From a virus: DNA of 64,000 nt. Location of the stretch: the IMG/VR virus record IMGVR_UViG_3300045988_128407, positions 78,035-142,034 of that record, one strand, 5' to 3'. Below are positions 14,943-51,458 of the stretch, piece after piece. The position numbers and the translations under genes were made by a program. The notes under the pieces are model-generated. The model searched no databases, was not told where the DNA came from, and saw only the letters and a list, made by a program, of their open reading frames with translations. Position 1 is the first letter of the stretch. Every line of letters starts with the position of its first letter.

Positions 14943-15068
14943 GTTTCTGTCTTTTCTGAAAATACTTCTCTTCTATAGGAAATAAACACACCCATATTCC
15001 ACCCTGCAATCATGATCTTTGTTACGTGCTTCATGCACGTATGTTTAACAATTAAATACTATAAAATT

Positions 15069-16076
15069 ATGGGTGGTGATAAAATCGTCCTTTTAGATGG
15101 AGCCGGGGCTAACGGTGGTGGTGCAGCCACTAACGGTCTTCTTTCAATGATTCCCGGCATGTTTGCTAATTTGATAGGTGGTAATAAAATGGATCCGAAT
15201 CTGGTGGCGGCTTTGATGAACGGTCGTAACAACCAGGACGGTTTCGGTGGGGCTAACGGTTGGTGGCTCTGGATAATTGTTTTGTTCTGGCTGTGGGGTG
15301 GACGCGGCTTCGGTAACGGTTTTGGAAATGGCGGTGATTGTTGTGCCAATGGTTTGCCGGCTCAGTTGAATAACGATTACGGTCGTGAACTTTTGATGCA
15401 GGCAATTCAAGGTAATCGTAGCGCCATAGATCAGATTGCTTCTGCTTTGAACTGTTCTACTACTCAACTTCAGAACGCTATCTGCAACGTACAGGGTGCT
15501 ATTGATAAAGTAGCTGGTCAGGTAGGTATGACTTCTCAGGCTGTTATCAACGCAGTTCAACAACAAGGTTGTGAAATAGGAAATCAAATCAGCTCTTGCT
15601 GCTGCAATCTGAGTTCGTTGATCAATCAAAGCACTTGCCAGACTCAGGGAATGATTACTCAGCAAGGTTTTGATAACCAGCTTCGCACGTTGGAACAAAC
15701 CAATGTCTTGCAGAACGGTCTCAACCAAGGTCTGGCTAACAATCGTGAGCAAGCTACAAGCCAATTCAATATCTTGTCTGCGAAACTTGACGCCCAAACC
15801 GTTATGATCAACGACAAATTCTGTCAGTTGGAAATGAGGGAGATGCAGAACACTATTGCTCAACTTCGTGAAGAAAAAGCGGCTTTGACAGCTTCGGCAT
15901 TATCTCAGCAACAAACCCAGAATATCGTTGGTCAATTACGCCCGACGGCCGTCCCGGCCTACCCCTCTTGTTCTCCTTACCAGGCTTATACTTGGGGACA
16001 GGTATTCGGAGGAGGTTGCTGTAATAACGGATGCGGATGTAACAACGGATGTTGCAATAACAACGCTGCTGTCTGA
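15069..16076 (+). CDS. Gly/Asn/Gln/Cys-rich low-complexity membrane-anchored protein with vicinal-Cys motifs and C-terminal GGGCCNNGCGCNNGCCNNN tail
   Basis: ATG at 15069 (MGGDKIV). Tryptophan-rich hydrophobic TM-like segment WWLWIIVLFWLWGG; CC/CCC motifs. Antisense ORFs over it are judged spurious. Confidence 0.45.
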   Translation: MGGDKIVLLDGAGANGGGAATNGLLSMIPGMFANLIGGNKMDPNLVAALMNGRNNQDGFGGANGWWLWIIVLFWLWGGRGFGNGFGNGGDCCANGLPAQLNNDYGRELLMQAIQGNRSAIDQIASALNCSTTQLQNAICNVQGAIDKVAGQVGMTSQAVINAVQQQGCEIGNQISSCCCNLSSLINQSTCQTQGMITQQGFDNQLRTLEQTNVLQNGLNQGLANNREQATSQFNILSAKLDAQTVMINDKFCQLEMREMQNTIAQLREEKAALTASALSQQQTQNIVGQLRPTAVPAYPSCSPYQAYTWGQVFGGGCCNNGCGCNNGCCNNNAAV

Positions 16077-16099
16077 TTTTATTAAGAAAGGAGGCTAAT

Positions 16100-16513
16100 A
16101 TGGCTTGTGTTTCTAAAATAGGATCGTTGTATGAGATGGTTACGAAGAATGTTATTGTCAGTACGACAAATACAGTCTTCGGTATTAACCCACGGGCTTG
16201 GATCGCCCTTCCGTGTGAGGGTCTTATCCTTCTTAAGATAAGGCAAGTAGTCCCTACAGCCGGAAGTGCTCTACCGGTACAGATTGCGGTCCCGGCAAAC
16301 AGCACAGTTTCAACAGTAGGAGCCGACACCTGTTGCCCGGTTACGGGAGTGAATGTCGTGAACCCTATTAACGTAGCTGTCACGGGCGCTGCTATGGTAA
16401 ATGGCACAGAACGCCTTCTGTACTTCAATAAAGTTCGTGGCGTGTTAAGATTAATGGATTGTTGTGTTCCGACAACAACAGCCCAGGCGTCTGAAGTTAA
16501 AGCAGGTAAATGA
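16100..16513 (+). CDS. hypothetical protein with two vicinal-Cys motifs (DTCCPV, MDCCVP)
   Basis: ORF co-oriented with neighbours; shares CC motif with the upstream protein. Confidence 0.35.
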   Translation: MACVSKIGSLYEMVTKNVIVSTTNTVFGINPRAWIALPCEGLILLKIRQVVPTAGSALPVQIAVPANSTVSTVGADTCCPVTGVNVVNPINVAVTGAAMVNGTERLLYFNKVRGVLRLMDCCVPTTTAQASEVKAGK

Positions 16514-16563
16514 TTTCAGTAGGGTGATGAAGATCATCACCCTATTTTCACCTAACTAATATT

Positions 16564-17058
16564 TTGATCATGTTTTCAGATTTGAAGAAAGGGTTTCAGG
16601 TACATACCCTTGATACTAATACAGTACCTAAATACGAATTGGGAAAGGTAGTAGCCGTATCCGAACCCAGGTATCTTCCTCCTCAGCCAGGTCAGTATCA
16701 GGCGATGCAGACCCGCGTGGTGGATCTGACGGTAGAGCTCACTGGCGAAACCAAGACCTATACGGTCCCGGAATCCCAGAATGTGGCTAAGGCTATGGGC
16801 ATAACATTATCTACCAGCATAGATCCGATTATGAACGAACTGAATGCTATAAAAAACACCAGTCAAGACATAATAAACAGCGTAGATGCCCATCGTGCCA
16901 AGATAGAGGCTTGTGAATCTATATTAGAAGACATCAATCCGGCATTCAAACAAACGAGAGAGCAGGATCGTAAAATAGCTGGTATAGAAAATAAGGTGAA
17001 TGACCTTACTGATTCATTCGAAGATTTAAAGAAGTTAATTGTAGAACGTTTGAAATAA
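16564..17058 (+). CDS. hypothetical coiled-coil protein (164 aa)
   Basis: ORF with heptad-like C-terminus. Confidence 0.45.
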   Translation: MIMFSDLKKGFQVHTLDTNTVPKYELGKVVAVSEPRYLPPQPGQYQAMQTRVVDLTVELTGETKTYTVPESQNVAKAMGITLSTSIDPIMNELNAIKNTSQDIINSVDAHRAKIEACESILEDINPAFKQTREQDRKIAGIENKVNDLTDSFEDLKKLIVERLK

Positions 17059-17065
17059 GTATAAT

Positions 17066-17434
17066 ATGATAGTATATGATTTAAATTCAGGACACAGAGA
17101 ATATCCTGGATATGACGAGATAGAAGACAGACGAGGTGGAGGCAGAGGCAGAAGCCGGCGTTCTGATGGGACGTACATGGGGTATGGTGGTGGTATTTAC
17201 GACCATTACGGTATGCATGAGAAGATGAAAGAAATGGAAGAGCGCGAAAACGAGCTGGAAGAAAGGGAAAGAAGGCTCGAAGAGCGCGAACGTCGTCATG
17301 AAATGGAGGACCGGGAATACCGGAGGATGGGTTACGAATCCTACCCGACCGATTACTATGGAGACGACAGATACTACGGTGACGGACCTCAGATGCGTAG
17401 AGGTCGCGGACGTGGCAGAGGTCGTTCTTATTGA
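17066..17434 (+). CDS. Arg/Gly-rich protein with ER-repeat coiled coil (EERERRLEERERRHE) and RGRGRGRGR tail
   Basis: 122-aa ORF; TGA stop is in frame with the next ORF (17528-17821). Confidence 0.45.
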   Translation: MIVYDLNSGHREYPGYDEIEDRRGGGRGRSRRSDGTYMGYGGGIYDHYGMHEKMKEMEERENELEERERRLEERERRHEMEDREYRRMGYESYPTDYYGDDRYYGDGPQMRRGRGRGRGRSY

Positions 17435-17527
17435 GGAGCAGACGCAGAGGATCCAGCTTATCAGAAATATGTAGATACTTACGGCTACCATTTTTCTAAT
17501 GCTCTCGCTGATGAGGCGGTAAAGAAG

Positions 17528-17821
17528 ATGGTCAACGTCGATGGATCCAAGAGGATCTGGAAGCAGCCGGAAATAAAAGATATTTTTGAAAAGTGCGGAG
17601 CGAAGAAGCCGGATAAAGCGACATGGGGCGATGTCCAATATGTCTTTGCAATGTACTATTCGGATGGTTTTCCGAAGGTCTTCAAATGTGAGAACGAGTT
17701 GGTGAAAGCTACGTTAATGTATTTGGATGATCCGGATGCTCCCGAAGGAGTAGCCTTTATAAGATGGCTTGCCGTGCAAGATTACCTCGGCGAAAAAATA
17801 AACTGGAAGGATCTGACCTGA
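17528..17821 (+). CDS. hypothetical protein (97 aa)
   Basis: ATG ORF; frame is open back to the TGA at 17432. Confidence 0.4.
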   Translation: MVNVDGSKRIWKQPEIKDIFEKCGAKKPDKATWGDVQYVFAMYYSDGFPKVFKCENELVKATLMYLDDPDAPEGVAFIRWLAVQDYLGEKINWKDLT

Positions 17822-17925
17822 GATCCAGATCCAGGTCCTTCCGGTGGTGCGGGAGCCATAGTAAAAAATATGATTCCCGCATTCCCGTTTTTCCCGTTTG
17901 GAAAAAAAGGAATAAAAATATTATA

Positions 17926-17965
17926 CCGGTCGGCGGGCAATAGAATACCCGTGGCCGGTTTGTTT
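17926..17965 (+). terminator. hairpin plus T-run; terminator-like and/or right-end secondary structure of the TnpB island
   Basis: CCGGTCGGCGGG..CCCGTGGCCGG imperfect 11-bp stem followed by TTTGTTT. Confidence 0.35.
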
Positions 17966-18166
17966 CACATAACTTTTTTTTTGGATATGAATATAGCACA
18001 CGAATCTAAATCGAATAAAACCCCATTGTATTTAATAGGAGAGTTGATTGGCGTACCGAATACGGTTATGGACTCAGCATTGCATGAACTGAAAGATAGA
18101 ATAGACAAAGACCCTAAATGGGTGATTATATACCACTTTACACCAAAAGCGTAAAGTAATACACAT

Positions 18167-19390
18167 TTATACGGAAATTCGTACCGGGTTACACCAAAAC
18201 CCTCTACCTTCTGGTAACATCGTTACATCAAAGGATTCTTTTTCCGATTTACGGATGATGTTAAAAGCACCATTGATATCAGCATTAATTGTCTTACCAG
18301 AAGAGGTTTTAAACAATCCTCGTTTAATCCTTCTTCCTTTGTAAGATTCATGTTTGCAAATCCGTTCATTATCTAAAAAGCTACATTTTGAAGTATAAGA
18401 TTCTTCAACGATCTTAACATTAATACCTTCTAATGTAGCTTTATACGATATCATACTGATAAACGAATTAAAAGGAATAGATACAAAGTTCTGATTATTA
18501 CGCTTTCCAATATTGATCTCTTGTTTCCAGCACTTGTTATGACCGATTATGATCGTATTAATACCATTGGAAACTACATGATTAACCAATATTCTACTTG
18601 CTTTATGCAGATAGTCTTTGATCTTGTTATTCCTTTTGTCGGTTAATGACCTTATTTGTTTTGAAATCTGTTTATTGTCTTTTAACTTAGATTTTAAGAA
18701 TGCTAACCTTTTGTTATAATATTGGTTAATAGACTTTAGTGGTCTACCATTGATGATAAAACAAGAACCGGTGTTTGAAACACAAGATGCTAAATTATCC
18801 AATCCTATGTCGATGCCAAGATAGTTCCCATTATCGGACATAAGATTCTTTTCCTTCTTATTGTAAACTATTTCAAGAACAATATACCCATTCTTAGGAA
18901 TGAATCTAAGTTGTTGAATATTTTGCTTGTTAGTTCTTGTTGTAAAGGAAAACTGTTTTGGTAACTTAACAATGCCTTGTTTTATCCATTTTTGAGAAAA
19001 AGCATTTGTTGCAAAAACAGCAGGAAACAAACCACCCTTGTTGAGATACCTTGGCATTCTTACTTCCTCAGAATACTCACCTCTATTCTTTTTATTAAAG
19101 AGATTGAAGAAAGATTTAAAGTTTCTATCAACCATCATCAATACTTGTTGAGCAACCGGTGCTGGTAAAGCACGATAGTCAACATCATTTTCTGTTCTTA
19201 ACTTCTTTTCAAGAGAATAGTAGTTTAGGTACTTATACTTTACAGTATTATCATCCTTGTATTGAAAATAATACTGTCTAACAACATATAACCCTTTATT
19301 GTATAAGTTTTTACACTTATGCAATAGATCATAAAGTTCATTGTAATAAACAGAACTTGGTTTGATCGTATGTTGTTCGACTAATCTCAT
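18167..19390 (-). CDS. tnpB: TnpB / OrfB-like RuvC nuclease (IS605 family), 407 aa
   Basis: RuvC-I LGIDIGLDN, RuvC-II VEESYTSK, RuvC-III INADINGAFNI. Only a degenerate zinc finger (CSFLDNERIC). Paralogous to 31984-33174. Confidence 0.8.
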   Translation of the reverse strand: MRLVEQHTIKPSSVYYNELYDLLHKCKNLYNKGLYVVRQYYFQYKDDNTVKYKYLNYYSLEKKLRTENDVDYRALPAPVAQQVLMMVDRNFKSFFNLFNKKNRGEYSEEVRMPRYLNKGGLFPAVFATNAFSQKWIKQGIVKLPKQFSFTTRTNKQNIQQLRFIPKNGYIVLEIVYNKKEKNLMSDNGNYLGIDIGLDNLASCVSNTGSCFIINGRPLKSINQYYNKRLAFLKSKLKDNKQISKQIRSLTDKRNNKIKDYLHKASRILVNHVVSNGINTIIIGHNKCWKQEINIGKRNNQNFVSIPFNSFISMISYKATLEGINVKIVEESYTSKCSFLDNERICKHESYKGRRIKRGLFKTSSGKTINADINGAFNIIRKSEKESFDVTMLPEGRGFWCNPVRISV

Positions 19391-19607
19391 GACACAAATA
19401 TTGGCGTATTTGTGGTGTAAAGTTGTATATAATTACCTAAAGATGTTAAAAATTGGCTCGAATCTTTACCCAAGATCTGAACCTATTTTTTTCAATACCA
19501 GGCCCGATGCGATTTTAACGTATCGGGTTTTTATTTTAATTCATATTGTTTTATTTTAAATCTAATTAATTCATGAATGTCGTACTTTTGTTGAAAAAGT
19601 ATTTTTT

Positions 19608-19835
19608 ATGGAAAATAAGGAAGATTACGTTGGTTACGAAGATCAAGAACTGTGTAACCGGTATTACAAAGAGGCTGAAGTCATGAGGCAAAAGCAGGAC
19701 TGGCCTCGGCTTAGGGCTGTCCCTGCTCCGGCTAAGGGAACGCCATCGCCCGGCTGGGGTCAGCTTGGACGTGGAAATGATGTCCGTGTTAAGTATGTTA
19801 GCATCAATTCAGGATTAGGAGGAGATAGGTTATGA
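19608..19835 (+). CDS. small hypothetical protein (75 aa)
   Basis: First of four start/stop-overlapping small genes. Confidence 0.35.
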   Translation: MENKEDYVGYEDQELCNRYYKEAEVMRQKQDWPRLRAVPAPAKGTPSPGWGQLGRGNDVRVKYVSINSGLGGDRL

Positions 19836-20047
19836 CTGTAGAAGAATTGGCTAATAAAAGATACGGTGGCGAATTTGTTTTCATGTTTGGTCATCTTGAA
19901 GGTAGAACAAGATTCGTTTTTGGATGCTTTGATCCCAGACCTGATCACGAAGGTAAAAACACTTATATGGTTTCCTATTTTGATAAGGGACTTCGTAGAA
20001 GAGATGTGGTAGATGTGCCGTGTTATATGAATATTTTGCCAAAATAA
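19832..20047 (+). CDS. small hypothetical protein (71 aa)
   Basis: ATGA overlap with upstream stop. Confidence 0.4.
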   Translation: MTVEELANKRYGGEFVFMFGHLEGRTRFVFGCFDPRPDHEGKNTYMVSYFDKGLRRRDVVDVPCYMNILPK

Positions 20048-20250
20048 TGGAAATATTAATCTTAGATGTACCTGTATTTTCCGGTAAGATTATTTCTCCT
20101 ATCTGGATTAAAGCCGTAAGAGATTTTCAATCCAAATCGAAGACAGAAAGAGACTCGTATTGTTTGATTTGTGGATGTACAGGAGGGTGTAACTTGTGCG
20201 ATGATATAAGTAAATATAGGATTTCAGAACAATTAAAATATTACAAATAA
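20047..20250 (+). CDS. small Cys-rich hypothetical protein (67 aa from ATG 20047)
   Basis: TAATG overlap with upstream stop; CLICGCTGGCNLC motif. Confidence 0.35.
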   Translation: MEILILDVPVFSGKIISPIWIKAVRDFQSKSKTERDSYCLICGCTGGCNLCDDISKYRISEQLKYYK

Positions 20251-20805
20251 TGGAATTAAAAGATTCAGTCAGGGTAATGACTAAAGAAGAGTTCGAATCA
20301 GCAATCAACGAAGATATTAAATTCGTTGAAGGAATTAAGCATTTTTTTTAAACATGATGATGCTACGAGGGTAATGGAACACGTAAAGTCCGTGTTAGAG
20401 GCATCAGTAGACTACCACTACCCGAATCATCCTGAACCTGAAGCAGAACCTGGAGACATGGGAGAGGTTTCTGATGGATACCATACTTTCAATGAATTGT
20501 ATCGGTACCGCATGTTGTATAATGCCGCCTTCTTTAATCTATTAGCCAGAAACGGACAGGTTGAAGTTTGCAAATCAAGGAGACACAGCGATGGAGAAAA
20601 ATGCTTCGGTTCTGATGATTGGTTTATTGTGATGGCGATCCTACCTACCGGTCAGGTATCTAATCACTATGAAAGCAAATACTGGGATTTGTTTGATGTT
20701 CCTGAAAGAGAAACCGCTTTCGAATACGATGGCCATACACCAAATGAAGCCTCCGACAGACTTGAAAAGTATCTCAAACTGCCTCGTCGTGGCATGACAT
20801 TCTAA
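20250..20805 (+). CDS. hypothetical protein encoded in two frames joined at a T8 tract (20342-20349); would need a +1 shift, or a T7 allele
   Basis: ATG 20250 overlaps upstream stop (TAATG). That frame ends ..CAT TTT TTT TAA; the 159-aa ORF continues in the +1 frame from AAA CAT GAT. Confidence 0.35.
20342..20349 (+). repeat. T8 homopolymer at frame junction
   Basis: Counted directly in sequence. Confidence 0.9.
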
Positions 20806-20939
20806 CAGGCTTTAGAACGGCTTAAATTAGGTCGTAAGATAAAAAGAATCGATTGGGGTAAAAAGTATATCTGTATATCCGAAATAACATTAAAACAATA
20901 TAATTTCATTATAAGGTTTTAATGTACCATAAATGGTCC

Positions 20940-21136
20940 GGATATTAGCCTAAGCCTTGAAACGAAGGCTACGTTATTTGAGAATAGATAGTTACCTACG
21001 GATGTTTGCCCAAGTCCGTAGCCCTAAGGCAAGCGATTAAACAGGAGTAGTATATTTGGTGAAACAGTGTTGCCTGCAAGTAAACCTCTTATAACATTGG
21101 CGATGGGTACTAACAGGATGAAATATTCCTGATTTA
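20940..21136 (+). ncRNA. omega-RNA-like structured non-coding element immediately upstream of the IscB remnant (copy A of a ~200-bp repeat)
   Basis: No ORF. Local hairpins GCCTT/AAGGC and CTACGGA/TCCGTAG; GGCAA/TTGCC closes a 45-nt segment; CAGGA/TCCTG near the 3' end. About 90% identical to the reverse complement of 50683-50880. Confidence 0.4.
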
Positions 21137-21167
21137 TGTTGAATAAACATTAAAAACGTTTGTAGAT

Positions 21168-21650
21168 ATGGTGTACGTACAAGACATAAATGGTAAACCG
21201 ATGATGCCAACAACGAGGCATGGTAAGGTTAGGAGACTGCTTAAAGATAAAAAGGCAGTCGTTGTGAACCTATGTCCGTTTACCATCAAATTAATGTACG
21301 TCACATCCGATTACAAACAAGAAATTGTGTTAGGCGTTGATGCTGGAACTAAGCATGTTGGTCTATCAGCTACAACGAAAAGCAAAGAACTTTACAGTAG
21401 TGAAGTGATCCTTAGAAATGATATCGTAGATCTTTTGTCTACCAGAAGGGAGCTACGAAGAGCAAGACGGAACAGGTTAAGATATAGAAAACCTCGTTTT
21501 AATAATAGAATAAAAAGCAAGCGTCCAGGATGGACAGCACCTTCGGTGAAGTACAAAATAGACGCCCATATTCGTGTTTATGATAGAGATGAGATGAAAT
21601 TGATATATAGTATAAAAAATAGTATCTTGAAAGAAATGTTTATCATATGA
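21168..21650 (+). pseudogene. iscB: truncated IscB/IsrB-family N-terminal fragment (PLMP-like motif + RuvC-I + Arg-rich bridge helix), 160 aa
   Basis: GKPMMPTTRHGKVRRLLKDKKAVVV; IVLGVDAGTKHVGLS; RRELRRARRNRLRYRKPRFNNRIKSKRPGWTAPS. ORF ends before any RuvC-II/HNH/RuvC-III region. Confidence 0.6.
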
Positions 21651-21709
21651 TTACCAAGCAGGACATATCATAAAAAAATGGCGGAATTGAACTATTTAAA
21701 CAAATAATA

Positions 21710-21744
21710 AAGTCGGGTACGTAAGTTATCCGACTTTTTTTTTA
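21710..21744 (+). terminator. rho-independent terminator after the IscB remnant
   Basis: AAGTCGG..CCGACTT stem followed by TTTTTTTTT. Confidence 0.6.
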
Positions 21745-21754
21745 TATTTGTGGC

Positions 21755-22078
21755 ATGGCAAGAGGTTATTATTGGATACCGCAGACAGATGAAACGTTAA
21801 ATGGCAGAAGCTATTACGTGGCTAAGATAGTAGGAGATATCACGTTTGATACTAAACGAAAAAGAATCGTATTTCAAGCTGATAGGTATTTCCCTGTAGG
21901 ATCTGTTTTCCATTTTACGCACAATTGCTTCAATTATATCATAACTTGCCGACTTCGTAAGCCGGGGCTTTGGTTTGAAGCCAGGAGAGAGGATTCGGGC
22001 CCTATTTGCCCTGAAGATATTGAGCGCTTTGAATCGGGAAGGTTTATACACCGAGATGGGTACATGCATTACATATAA
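21755..22078 (+). CDS. hypothetical protein (107 aa)
   Basis: ATG ORF; the antisense ORF over it is judged spurious. Confidence 0.3.
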   Translation: MARGYYWIPQTDETLNGRSYYVAKIVGDITFDTKRKRIVFQADRYFPVGSVFHFTHNCFNYIITCRLRKPGLWFEARREDSGPICPEDIERFESGRFIHRDGYMHYI

Positions 22079-22190
22079 GCTGAACTTGACGATTTTTCGT
22101 CAGATTATAATTTTTTTTTCATATTATTTTTAAGCCATCAGACTGAGAAGTTAGATGGCTTTATTTTCTATGATATGCTTGATTTTTAAC

Positions 22191-22198
22191 TACCTTTG
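22191..22198 (+). promoter_or_regulatory. Bacteroidota-type -7 motif (TAccTTTG) upstream of the 2140-aa gene
   Basis: TAnnTTTG consensus about 25 nt upstream of ATG 22222. Confidence 0.3.
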
Positions 22199-22221
22199 TC
22201 TCATAACAAAAATGTTTTACT

Positions 22222-25200
22222 ATGACATCAACGTGTATTATTAAAAGAGATAATAAAAAGAAAGTTGTTTCTGTCTCTACCAGATCAGGGGACAGGTCTA
22301 TGTTGTTTGATAAGATAGCATCTATTCCTCTTATGGAGAACAGGGAACGGGCTACTACTGTTTTTAAAACCGTATTTTCTAATAAGTTCTTAAAGGCTTT
22401 TGGTGACTGGAGAAGGAATGTACCTGTTAATAAACAGGCTTATAATAAGGTAAAATCCAACATCGGCCTTATTCCGGAAGCCTATAGAGAAAGGGTGCTG
22501 GATAAGGCTTCTAAGATGAGTAATCCTATTCTTGTGTCAAAATCAGATGCACCTTATGAAATCCGAGAATCGGGCTTTGGATTTTACAGCCAAGATCTGG
22601 GTGATAATATTATGTTGGTGGATGCTATGGTTCCGTCAAGTATTTCTGTACCGGAAGGACCTGGAATAGACGCCGGACAGTATCTACAAGATGCTATATC
22701 TTCGGACTTTACTCCCGTATTTATGGTACAGGATAAGGGTGTTAATTATATGGTTATAAAAGACGGTCTTAAGATATTTAGCCCAGAAGAGTTACCAGAA
22801 ACAGATTCTAATCCCGTGGGTGTAACATATCAGACCGGAGAGCCTCGTTTGTTTTTCATGAACGATCGTAGTCAATTATTTGAAGATTACGGAGAAGCTC
22901 TTCGCTCTGGCGGGAATGATATTAGAATAGGATTCTTATCAGGCACCGTTCAAGAATCTGCCTGGGATGGCGTGGCAGACATTACTTACAAGGCTGGAAA
23001 GTATGTTCTTAATAATCCCAAGTCTTTTATACCGGTCATGACCGCTTCTGCTTCTACTTCTTTATCAACGAAAGGTGGGATAATTAACTACCTTATAAAG
23101 AAAGGTCTTTTATCAGGATCTAAGATATTCGATTCGGAAACAAGAAGCTATTATCTTACAGGAGAAGGGCATACAGGACAAATTAGACTTTTCAATTCAG
23201 CCTTATCCTACACCGAGCTCCGTAATCATTTTGGTTCCGATGTTTCCATGAACGACCAAGGTATGATAACCATAAGCTCGTTGGATAATAGTAAGGTAAC
23301 TATGAGACTCGCCACCGGAGGAACGGAAAGGGTTAGCAAAGAGCAGATAAAGAACGATCTTAAGTCGGGGAGATACAATGAATTGGACGCCAAGTACGAT
23401 CATTTTGATGCGCTTGTAGTTTCATTCATATTAGAAGACAACGATCTTTATGCTGATACTAAAGCTAAGATCGTATCAGATTATAGCAGGCAGGAACGTG
23501 ATCAACGAAATTCTATTGTCGAGATACTGAAAACGCTTGGCGTTAGTGTCATAGGTATGACCGACTATATAGAGAAGTACCAAACCAAATACGGGCATGA
23601 ACCTTCTGTTAAGGCATTGGCGGATATTGCCAATAACGTAATAGCAGTTGGTGAAGATGCTACTTTATCTGATTTAGTAGAAGAAACAGCCCACTTCCTT
23701 GTAGAGGCATACAGAGATCAGAATGCTGTTGAGGCTGTTCTGCAAGATGTAGAAGGTACGGAAGAGTGGAACCAGTATGCTGGTCAGTATTATAATACAT
23801 ACGGTAAGGTATATGAGGGAGCTGAGCTTGATAATGCTGTTAGGAGAGAAATTCTTGGAAAGATCCTTGCCAGGGAGATGCAGACCGGCACAGCACAGGC
23901 GCCGGTAGAGCCCACCTCCTTCCTGGGGCGCGTCCGGCAGCTTTTCTCTGGAATCGTAAGCTGGCTTAAATCAGCTTTATCTACTCAAAGACAAGATTTG
24001 AATAACGTTATTAAAAACATTCGTGATCTTGCCATTACTGACATAGATAAAGGATTTGACCCCTCTCTGTTAAAGGATAATGACTTTACATTATACTCCC
24101 TTTCTTCTATGAATAAGAACAAGTTTCTTGAGTCTAAGATCCGGGCATTAAGAAAAACCTTAAGAGACTTGCGTCAGATAAGCTCTGATAGGGCTGTAAC
24201 TACGTCTATGACCCTTGCTCAGCTTAAGACCATAGAAGATAAGATAAATAAGGTAGAGACCGAAATAGACAAGAATGAGATGGCGGCTGCCATGAACAGC
24301 ATGATCTCTACAGCCGAAGCTCAGGTCAGATACTTAAGTAATGTGGTGAACACCATCCTTCATGGTGATACCAAAGACGGTAAGCTTCACTTCAATACCA
24401 ATGATCGAAAGAACGTAGATATTATCAACAATCAGGTTCTTCCGATCATGAACGATCTTCGAGGATATATCCGTAACAGAAGTACCGAATTTGATGAACG
24501 TGAAAAGCAGGATTATACAAATAGGATCAATACCGTCATTGCCGACATTAATGGTATTCAATCTGATATTAAATCAGTACAAGACCTTGATGAAAGTACG
24601 TTGCTTGATAAGTTAATGAACGAACTTCATGTGCCGGCAGATAAGGTAAAGAGAGTAAAAGAATTTTTTGACAAAGTTCAACATGATGTCTCTTGGATAA
24701 GTAGGTGGTTCGGTATATTAGAGCATTCTTCCAGTCCGTTCAATAACGCTCTTGGAGCTATGATTGCCAAAGACAATTACAATGCGATGGTGAATGCCCA
24801 GCCCGCCATATCCGACTTCCTGGCATATGCTAAAAAGCATGGTTTTAACAAATCTGAATTTGAAAAACTGCTTCAGAAAGTAGACGGCAAAACTTCTAAT
24901 TACCTTCGTAGTGCTCTTGATATGGCTAAATACGATCGTAATAAGAAGTTGGCGCAGATGCGAGCGTTTGCGACTGCCATGAACATAGAGATATCAGAAG
25001 AAGAAATTGGTGATGTGGTTGACAATAACCGTAATTACGTATTTAAAAGAGAAGTAGTTGACAAGGATGGAAATACGGTTACTGAAAACGCTAAATTCAA
25101 ACCATCGTCTGATAGGGTTAATACCGATATTTTTACCATCGAGCAGGAAAAGATCTATACAGAACAGATGGAAAAGTGGGATGCTGAAAATTCGGAACTG

Positions 25201-50409: not shown

Positions 50410-50582
50410 CGCAATTTCTCAATTAATTCCTCTTTAACATAATACAACACAGTTACAGTCTCATCCATATCTGCGGCTGCTCCCTCAAAATCAATTTCTC
50501 TCTCACTCTCTCCTCTTTTTACGTTGGCAATGAAAATAATTTCATCGTCAGCTTCTATTGTAACCTTATATTTTTTTTTCAT
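50406..50582 (-). CDS. small acidic ORF (58 aa), stop overlaps downstream ATG (ATGA)
   Basis: MKKKYKVTIEADDEIIFIANVKRGESEREIDFEGAAADMDETVTVLYYVKEELIEKLR; below track cutoff. Confidence 0.25.
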   Translation of the reverse strand: MKKKYKVTIEADDEIIFIANVKRGESEREIDFEGAAADMDETVTVLYYVKEELIEKLR

Positions 50583-50635
50583 ATCCCATATTCTATTAAA
50601 TATATTTAAAGCTATTCATCTGTTTTAATACATCC

Positions 50636-50661
50636 CCTCGGAGACCTTTCGGTCTCCGAGG
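50636..50661. other. perfect 11-bp stem / 4-nt loop hairpin (CCTCGGAGACC tttc GGTCTCCGAGG) next to repeat copy B
   Basis: Read directly; no adjacent T-run on either strand. Confidence 0.8.
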
Positions 50662-50682
50662 TAGATGTAAATCCCGTTAGGG

Positions 50683-50880
50683 ATAAGTCAGGAATATTTC
50701 ATCCTGTTAGTACCCATCGCCAATGTTATAAGAGGTTTTATATAATGGCAACACTGTTTCGTCAAATACACTACTCCTGTTTAACCACCATTCTTAGAGC
50801 TACGAACTTGGGTAAACATCCGTAGGTAACTATCTATTCTCAAATAACGTAGCCTTTGTTTCAAGGCTTAGGCTAATAAC
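50683..50880 (-). ncRNA. orphan second copy (inverted) of the omega-RNA-like ~200-bp element
   Basis: About 90% identical to the reverse complement of 20940-21136. The copies differ in blocks, and this copy uses an alternative helix pair AATGG/CCATT. No nuclease ORF is adjacent. Confidence 0.35.
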
Positions 50881-50936
50881 CCGATCTCTGAAAGAGATGT
50901 ATTAAACTTTTATAATAGAATTATATCAGGTTAATA

Positions 50937-51458
50937 CTATTTGGGGTTATATCTGTCAATTATTTCAATAATCAACCTACCTCTTTCTTTGATCATTCCC
51001 CTGCTTTCCATATCCAGTACCTTCTTTACCGCATACTTCCATACAAAAGGAAATTCTGTTTCAAGTTTATCAAATTCCATCCGGTCAAGATACATGTCGA
51101 ATACCGTATGCTCCGATTCATGAAGGAAAACTATATTATCCCTGCAAGTAGCAACCGACTTATATATCCTTTTCGGAAGTATGTGACAGACGTTACATAC
51201 TGTAGGAAAATGAATAGCCTTACCAGTCATAGACATTCGAATAGTACTCAACTCCTCCAACATAAGACGAAAAAACCCGGATAAATCCGGGTTCTCTAAC
51301 TTTTTCTTCTTGCTGCTGTTTTTAATGGATGTAATTCTGTTTTTTTTCTTCGGAGTCAACTCTTTGCTCCTGCAAGCCTGGCATAAGCCATGACTTCTTA
51401 TCATCACTTTTCGTCCGCATCGTTCGCAGACGTATAGCTTCTTTTCCTTGCTTTCCAT
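50937..51458 (-). CDS. zinc-ribbon protein with possible HNH-like motif (173 aa)
   Basis: CERCG..CQAC; CNVCH..NIVFLHESEH. Confidence 0.3.
   Translation of the reverse strand: MESKEKKLYVCERCGRKVMIRSHGLCQACRSKELTPKKKNRITSIKNSSKKKKLENPDLSGFFRLMLEELSTIRMSMTGKAIHFPTVCNVCHILPKRIYKSVATCRDNIVFLHESEHTVFDMYLDRMEFDKLETEFPFVWKYAVKKVLDMESRGMIKERGRLIIEIIDRYNPK

Follow-up and report, generated by a model that had tools for sequence, protein, structure and literature searches.

A gutted IscB element with an intact omega RNA gene in a relative of phage csAssE-Sib, probably the product of a recent deletion

We analysed a 64,000-nt stretch of a viral genome (IMG/VR record IMGVR_UViG_3300045988_128407, positions 78,035 to 142,034; hereafter the window) in which a short open reading frame (ORF) resembling the start of an IscB nuclease follows a structured, ORF-free segment. 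From its deletion history relative to an intact copy, the locus at 20875-21650 is very probably a broken copy of an IS200/IS605-type IscB element. Its 160-aa ORF is best filed, by sequence, as an IscB pseudogene beside an intact omega RNA gene, with no working IscB. Read against the intact copy, the truncation is one recent 1,449-bp deletion and not old decay.

An IscB stump joined to the tail of a phage gene

A first-pass annotation, made from the nucleotide sequence alone, had proposed that the 160-aa ORF reproduces the IscB N-terminus, with a PLMP motif, a RuvC-I motif including its Asp and an Arg-rich bridge helix, and had named a profile comparison with IscB as the check. The ORF is present as described at 21168-21650 (+), and the profile comparisons agreed with its assignment. 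It matched Pfam RRXRR (PF14239) over residues 2-150 (E = 7e-45) and the first 141 of the 314 positions in the NCBIfam guided_IscB profile (NF040563); its truncation keeps the latter score, 155 bits, under the 175-bit cutoff. Solved IscB structures (7utn, 7xht and others) were matched with E ~4e-23, the aligned part being OgeuIscB residues 4-113 and 144-180 only. The IsrB structure 8dmb was also matched (E = 8e-16).

The IscB homology in this ORF covers the PLMP, RuvC-I and bridge-helix regions only and ends after residue 137. This iscB remnant, codons 1-137 at 21168-21578 (+), encodes the PLMP region, RuvC-I (GVDAG, with Asp58) and the Arg-rich bridge helix, ending in ...IDAHIRV, and it is the part that accounts for the RRXRR, guided_IscB and PDB matches. 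The first-pass annotation had taken all 160 residues as IscB, which holds for codons 1-137 and fails for the last 23. These 23 codons and the stop (21579-21650, +) are the tail of a phage gene, a homologue of the csAssE-Sib CDS WOZ57318.1 (blastn; window 21576-21667 corresponds to L001 5454-5545). Frame arithmetic and the shared stop codon showed that the tail is joined in frame to the iscB stump and that the fused ORF uses the phage gene's own stop.

Compared with the features of IscB, the N-terminal PLMP motif, the RuvC-I Asp and the Arg-rich bridge helix are all present in the 160-aa ORF, and a cognate omega RNA lies upstream on the same strand at a transposon end (HEARO match at 20875-21114; ATG at 21168). 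Missing are the RuvC-II Glu, the HNH His-His pair, the RuvC-III His/Asp and the TAM-interacting domain (TID). In agreement with the earlier observation that the ORF stops ahead of RuvC-II, HNH and RuvC-III, tblastn of the whole 64-kb window with an intact relative found no coding sequence for any of these regions or for the TID. A split or recoded iscB was rejected, because this search left no further iscB sequence in the window. Since the missing catalytic features are present in an intact sibling copy (L002, below) and in 63 of 76 related loci, the ORF is regarded as a pseudogene. RNA-guided cleavage by its predicted product should be impossible, given the loss of the catalytic residues.

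IsrB, a DNA-nicking relative of IscB, has no HNH domain but still possesses RuvC-II, RuvC-III and the TID. The 160-aa ORF shares the PLMP, RuvC-I and bridge-helix parts with IsrB, whereas the RuvC-II, RuvC-III and TID of IsrB are missing from it, and its intact siblings carry HNH. An IsrB identity was rejected on these grounds; of the earlier label of an "IscB/IsrB" locus, the IscB part is retained and the IsrB part dropped.

A recent deletion removed most of iscB

The contig that reveals the origin of the stump is IMGVR_UViG_3300045988_118194 (L002), which has the exact left junction of the window at the same site and an intact 406-aa IscB. Its full-length protein matched OgeuIscB with E ~2e-41 across RuvC-II, HNH and RuvC-III. 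The 293-nt omega RNA region of the window is 100% identical to L002 3708-4000, which lies upstream of the intact iscB, and iscB codons 1-137 of the two differ by one synonymous substitution. Missing from the window are the 1,449 bp at L002 4412-5860, comprising iscB codons 138-406, the iscB-distal transposon end (~34 bp after the stop codon) and ~600 bp of phage DNA. Only the omega-RNA-proximal end, with its hairpin at 20887-20925, is left of the two ends that an IS200/IS605 element has; the distal end is deleted. The deletion junction, CGTGTT|TATGATAGAG, was placed at 21578..21579 by comparison with L002, and imperfect microhomology is seen there (left ATTGATAATG, right TATGATAGAG). An exact search of IMG/VR for this junction returned no match. 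An exact-protein look-up in ENA and Logan assemblies found the 160-aa product on eight contigs from at least six samples, with the same neighbours; one of these contigs is the 143,748-bp XIEH16-1 scaffold_77 of ENA ERZ28659146. An assembly chimera was rejected on the basis of these copies.

The locus had earlier been called decayed, with two readings offered: a fossil insertion sequence, or an RNA kept for another use. The insertion sequence is indeed broken, but it is otherwise identical to the intact copy in L002, and the notion of an old fossil has to be given up. The second reading finds no support at the locus, since an RNA that is 100% identical to that of the intact copy has had no time for selection to show.

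The comparisons show three steps in the origin of the locus. In related phages, the intact element occupies the same intergenic position, between a DUF2829-domain gene and the ATG of the next gene. In the lineage leading to both L002 and the window, DUF2829 gained a stop codon, and 110 bp were lost between an internal ...CTGT|ATG and the transposon end. In the window lineage, the single 1,449-bp deletion at the imperfect microhomology then fused the stump to the phage gene tail, removing the RuvC-II Glu, HNH, the RuvC-III His/Asp, the TAM-interacting domain, the distal end and ~600 bp of phage genes. With the RuvC-I Asp as the only catalytic residue left, the locus should no longer be able to cut DNA, and with one transposon end gone it should no longer be able to excise or transpose. 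The omega RNA gene and its upstream flank would be intact only because the deletion is very recent. As the genes upstream lie on the same strand, the omega RNA is probably still transcribed by read-through. At most, it may serve an intact IscB supplied by another copy in the same genome or by a co-infecting relative.

The omega RNA and the retained transposon end

The Rfam HEARO model (RF02033) matched 20875-21114 (+) over its complete length (model positions 1-211; E = 2e-19), and the 95.5 bits obtained exceed the gathering score of 83. This covariance match bears out the first-pass suggestion of an omega RNA directly upstream of the ORF on the same strand. The RNA had been placed at 20940-21136; it is there, with its true start, and that of the transposon end, at 20875 rather than 20940. 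Among copies at different sites, homology starts at ATATCCG (ATATCCGAAATAAC), which sets window position 20875 as the omega-RNA-proximal end. The same comparison showed that a second end variant is present in the IscB element family. The omega-RNA-proximal end and the RNA scaffold span 20875-21135 (+) and correspond to the RE in the IS200/IS605 convention. They include a subterminal hairpin with a 10-bp stem (20887-20925) and a 3′ covarying hairpin (21114-21131) that extends the RNA past the Rfam model.

In the elements studied by Meers et al. (2023), the HEARO-bearing end is the transposon RE and the guide is drawn from flanking sequence that lies beyond the transposon end and precedes the scaffold. 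By analogy with this IscB biology, the 16 phage nucleotides that adjoin the transposon end on its 5′ side (20859-20874, +; TAAAAAGTATATCTGT) form a putative guide segment. Nine related phage loci with a retained DUF2829 domain have ATG directly after this 16-mer; csAssE-Sib has ATATTT there.

Alignment of the omega RNAs of 28 representative family members gave 47 consensus pairs, 12 of which showed compensatory changes, and the window copy at 20875-21135 retains 46 of the 47. Pairing was 99.4% in 15 omega RNAs beside intact genes and 99.6% in 12 omega-RNA-only sequences, and within the omega-RNA-only (mini) subset alone there were double changes at seven pairs. Since pairs are kept and covary in both full-length and mini copies, the omega RNA of the family is under structural constraint, protein-less copies included. 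The preservation of the window's own RNA, being identical to that of the intact copy, says nothing about selection.

In the L002-L165 alignment, omega RNA helix variants are mixed in a mosaic-like manner across full-length and mini elements (for example GCCTT/AAGGC versus GTGTT/AACAC, and CAGGAT...ATTCCTG versus CAGAGT...ACTCTG). This mosaic suggests frequent recombination among element copies.

Phage context of the locus

In GenBank, the window has a single close relative, csAssE-Sib (OR575929.1), a 151-kb phage from the human gut. A blastn comparison of window 15001-24000 with csAssE-Sib gave colinear blocks of 95-98% identity with two interruptions. Window 20879-21575, which holds the HEARO match and the IscB-like part of the ORF, has no counterpart in csAssE-Sib, and homology returns at 21576; no IscB was found in the csAssE-Sib genome. 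In phages of the L021 type, the element sits right behind the stop codon of a WDGH-DUF2829 fusion gene, which in csAssE-Sib is CDS WOZ57315.1. The DUF2829 part of this gene is a pseudogene in the window (20796-20878). Both L002 and the window have a GAA to TAA change at 20802-20804 (MTF*QALERLKLGRKIKRIDWGKKYICI), where the WDGH ORF (20326-20805) ends. Both also miss the 3′ 110 bp of DUF2829, and the transposon end adjoins ...TATCTGT. This left junction could have originated by a microhomology deletion (TGTAT on both sides) or by recombination between two IS copies.

Downstream of the fused ORF is an intrinsic-terminator-like hairpin with a T-run (21709-21745, +; hairpin 21709-21737). The first-pass annotation had seen a strong intrinsic terminator here (at 21710-21744) and included it in the span of the locus. 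The structure is real, but it lies inside a block (21707-24000) that is 95% identical to the IS-free csAssE-Sib, so it belongs to the phage and is no part of the IS.

The interval from the WDGH gene to a 2140-aa gene is an indel hotspot. There is a length polymorphism of 260-460 bp 3′ of the fusion ORF (window 21667-21707 versus L001 5545-6004 and L002 5949-6210), and the csAssE-Sib gene WOZ57319.1 is a mere 8-codon ORF in the window. At the L021-type site, 266 bp of csAssE-Sib (L001 4586-4851; the 91-aa hypothetical protein WOZ57316.1) are replaced by a 1.54-kb element (L021 3716-5255); consequently, no exact empty site was found for the full-length copy.

An IscB element family in a clade of gut phages

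A scan of IMG/VR with the N-terminal 137 residues identified 401 loci of this IscB family, with two or three copies on some contigs, and the best 80 of the 401 were fetched. Among these best 80, intact IscB (at least 400 aa, mostly 406-408 aa) was found in 63 of the 76 evaluable loci. The intact copies have RuvC-II (IVIEVAQFD), HNH (CQYCKGKS...NVHHIE...CETCH) and RuvC-III (KSHxSDAF) motifs and a C-terminal TAM-interacting region. About 25 of the fetched loci are at, or adjoin, the phage-genome position of the window locus. The intact element of ~1.54 kb consists of the omega RNA and iscB, without tnpA, and a crude HUH/Tyr motif filter gave no candidate Y1 (HUH) TnpA among the ORFs of the window. 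As judged from these loci, the family is abundant and evidently moves within a clade of csAssE-Sib-related human-gut phages with genomes of 140-155 kb. The locus is thus no isolated relic but belongs to an abundant, active IS family of 401 loci. In the window's own genome, no other IscB was found in the 64-kb window and 10 kb upstream, and no HEARO match in those 10 kb.

IscB homologues occur in at least 36 GenBank phage records, mostly labelled HNH endonuclease, with a best identity to the family of ~50%. In the literature searched, neither the phage IscB family nor phage csAssE-Sib was described.

Among the metagenomic relatives, iscB is broken in many different ways (P0004, P0007, P0013, P0038 and P0071). 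Some of the broken forms have in-frame internal deletions that lose HNH and/or RuvC-II yet keep the C-terminal domain, and P0013 joins the N-half of IscB to a TnpB C-terminus. In a word-indexed search of a large protein database, all of the best 120 relatives listed were 278 aa or shorter, with varied internal deletions. A conserved miniature family, or pervasive decay, was rejected because intact copies of 406-408 aa dominate the IMG/VR loci.

Omega-RNA-only mini elements and their insertion sites

Stand-alone omega RNAs reportedly occur in Ktedonobacter racemifer. In the window, a second locus of the same family, at 50583-50950 (-), is a 368-bp omega-RNA-only mini element made up of the omega RNA, a GC-rich hairpin (CCTCGGAGACC-GAAA-GGTCTCCGAGG) and the distal end, with no ORF. 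Its HEARO match covers 50706-50950 (-) with 95.9 bits, and by blastn the element matches both ends of the L002 element. The insertion separates a NinG-like gene, the last encoded residues of which it changes, from the ATG of the gene that follows; in csAssE-Sib the site is cleanly empty (GACAGAT|ATGAGAAA). Of the fetched loci, 13 have this site occupied and 13 have it empty. The internal junction of the mini element was found in 78 IMG/VR stretches, at no fewer than 10 sites and sometimes twice per contig, and manual comparison showed that at least 35 contigs are common to the mini-element and IscB lists.

The pairs of empty and occupied sites are clean, without target duplication, and both the intact siblings and the mini element at 50583-50950 have the ends and the insertion pattern of IS200/IS605 elements. 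Full-length and mini elements were compared at more than 20 sites, and in every one of them the distal end adjoins the ATG of the downstream gene (for example L021 5256, L010 ~5235 and window 50580-50582). This suggests an ATG-type, very short TAM or target site (CAT on the top strand of the transposase) or, failing that, very strong selection for such sites.

Comparison with known systems

All of the features above fit known IS200/IS605-type IscB elements and their protein-less PATE derivatives. Intact siblings of the window locus share with described IscB elements (OgeuIscB, 7utn/7xht; GstIscB, Meers et al. 2023) the order PLMP, RuvC-I, bridge helix, RuvC-II, HNH, RuvC-III and TID, and likewise have a HEARO omega RNA upstream at the transposon end, no target duplication and no tnpA inside. 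They differ in that the family is phage-borne and that the insertions seen are all before an ATG, and the window copy in that it is reduced to 137 codons and one end. PATEs are protein-less IS200/IS605 derivatives; Meers et al. described ones related to IscB and TnpB elements. The locus at 50583-50950 is like them, with both ends and an omega RNA, no ORF, multiple copies, and presence or absence depending on the site. In contrast, 20875-21650 has kept a gene stump and lost one end, and because of that loss it should be immobile.

A further comparison is with nuclease-derived regulators. TldRs are TnpB-derived, conserved full-length binders with dedicated target promoters. The likeness of the window locus to such factors lies in a guide RNA gene beside a protein that is unable to cut; the difference is that the loss in the window is recent and private to its lineage, with no sign of selection. 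A TldR-like domestication was rejected, because the truncated form is seen as identical copies only and the other short variants have unrelated breakpoints.

Alternative readings of the locus

The deletion history could be supplemented, though not replaced, by a role of the RNA in trans, which we consider unlikely. The omega RNAs of the window and of the mini elements would then be expressed guide cassettes, loaded by intact IscB that a second copy or a co-infecting phage supplies, and cleavage of sibling phages in which ATG follows the matching site would lead to gene conversion (allele homing) or competitor exclusion. Omega-RNA-only elements are numerous (78 stretches at 10 or more sites, with at least 35 contigs shared with the IscB list), and they keep their RNA structure (99.6% paired, seven pairs double-changed). 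The 16-nt flank of the window is followed by ATG, the presumed TAM, in nine related loci with intact DUF2829, which means that plausible targets may exist among sibling phages, and same-strand upstream genes make read-through transcription possible. However, the 74 kb of window and upstream sequence contain no intact IscB, the TAM is deduced from insertion sites alone, the identity of the RNA to that of an intact copy makes its preservation uninformative, and in csAssE-Sib the match is followed by ATATTT and not by ATG.

A clade-wide extension of this idea, which strikes us as improbable, is a distributed IscB system with few intact nucleases and many separate omega RNA genes, in mini and gutted copies, that are used in trans. 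If it were true, the window RNA (guide TAAAAAGTATATCTGT, target followed by ATG) would cut sibling phages with an intact DUF2829 region, resulting in gene conversion towards the deletion allele or in exclusion of competitors during co-infection. The clade would then have an RNA-guided analogue of what free-standing homing endonucleases do in T-even phages, and start codons would act as its target-adjacent motif.

We regard it as very unlikely that the 160-aa stub is an exapted mini-protein, a functional omega RNA binder that might, for example, inhibit IscB or act as a nuclease-dead regulator in the manner of TldR. In its favour, the fused ORF stays open and in frame up to a natural stop and occurs in several samples; the parts it retains contact the omega RNA in solved IscB structures; and metagenomes hold many other short ORFs from the IscB N-terminus. 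Yet all of those other short variants differ in their breakpoints and fused tails, the pattern of independent breakage. The stub itself is one synonymous change from the intact gene with no sign of selection, is without the TAM-interacting domain needed for binding of DNA targets, and has as its tail 23 residues of an unrelated phage protein, an in-frame fusion expected by chance in one third of cases.

That the locus is an assembly artefact, or that the ORF belongs to an RRXRR family distinct from IscB, is scarcely credible: the only point in favour is the NCBIfam score below the family cutoff, whereas the same junction and the exact protein recur in eight independent assemblies, and membership of another RRXRR family was rejected because an intact IscB with all catalytic motifs (OgeuIscB match E ~2e-41) has the identical sequence in its 5′ part, and because the HEARO match upstream is above its gathering score.

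Significance

Under the favoured reading of a recent deletion in an IscB element, the locus by itself is an unremarkable IS pseudogene, one more broken copy from a very active family. It is of use for annotation, as such ORFs are otherwise labelled "RRXRR protein" or "HNH endonuclease". The wider lead is the human-gut phage clade, with hundreds of near-identical IscB elements, omega-RNA-only derivatives and insertions seen at start codons. This clade may serve as a natural system for the spread and decay of OMEGA elements in phages, for omega RNA action in trans and for a possible ATG-type TAM. The family also offers a compact 406-aa IscB with many putative natural guide/target pairs.

TnpB elements in the same phage

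The window also has an intact 407-aa TnpB (ORF 18167-19390, -; guided_TnpB, 185 bits). Its 1.3-kb element (18120-19437) is a clean insertion relative to csAssE-Sib (...CCCTAAAT|...|AGATGTTAAAA), and on contig L084 tnpB is split into ORFs of 287 and 114 aa. A second TnpB, of 379 aa, is encoded ~9 kb upstream of the window start (L166 1119-2258). With two IscB-type and two TnpB loci, the phage carries at least four OMEGA-type elements or remnants.
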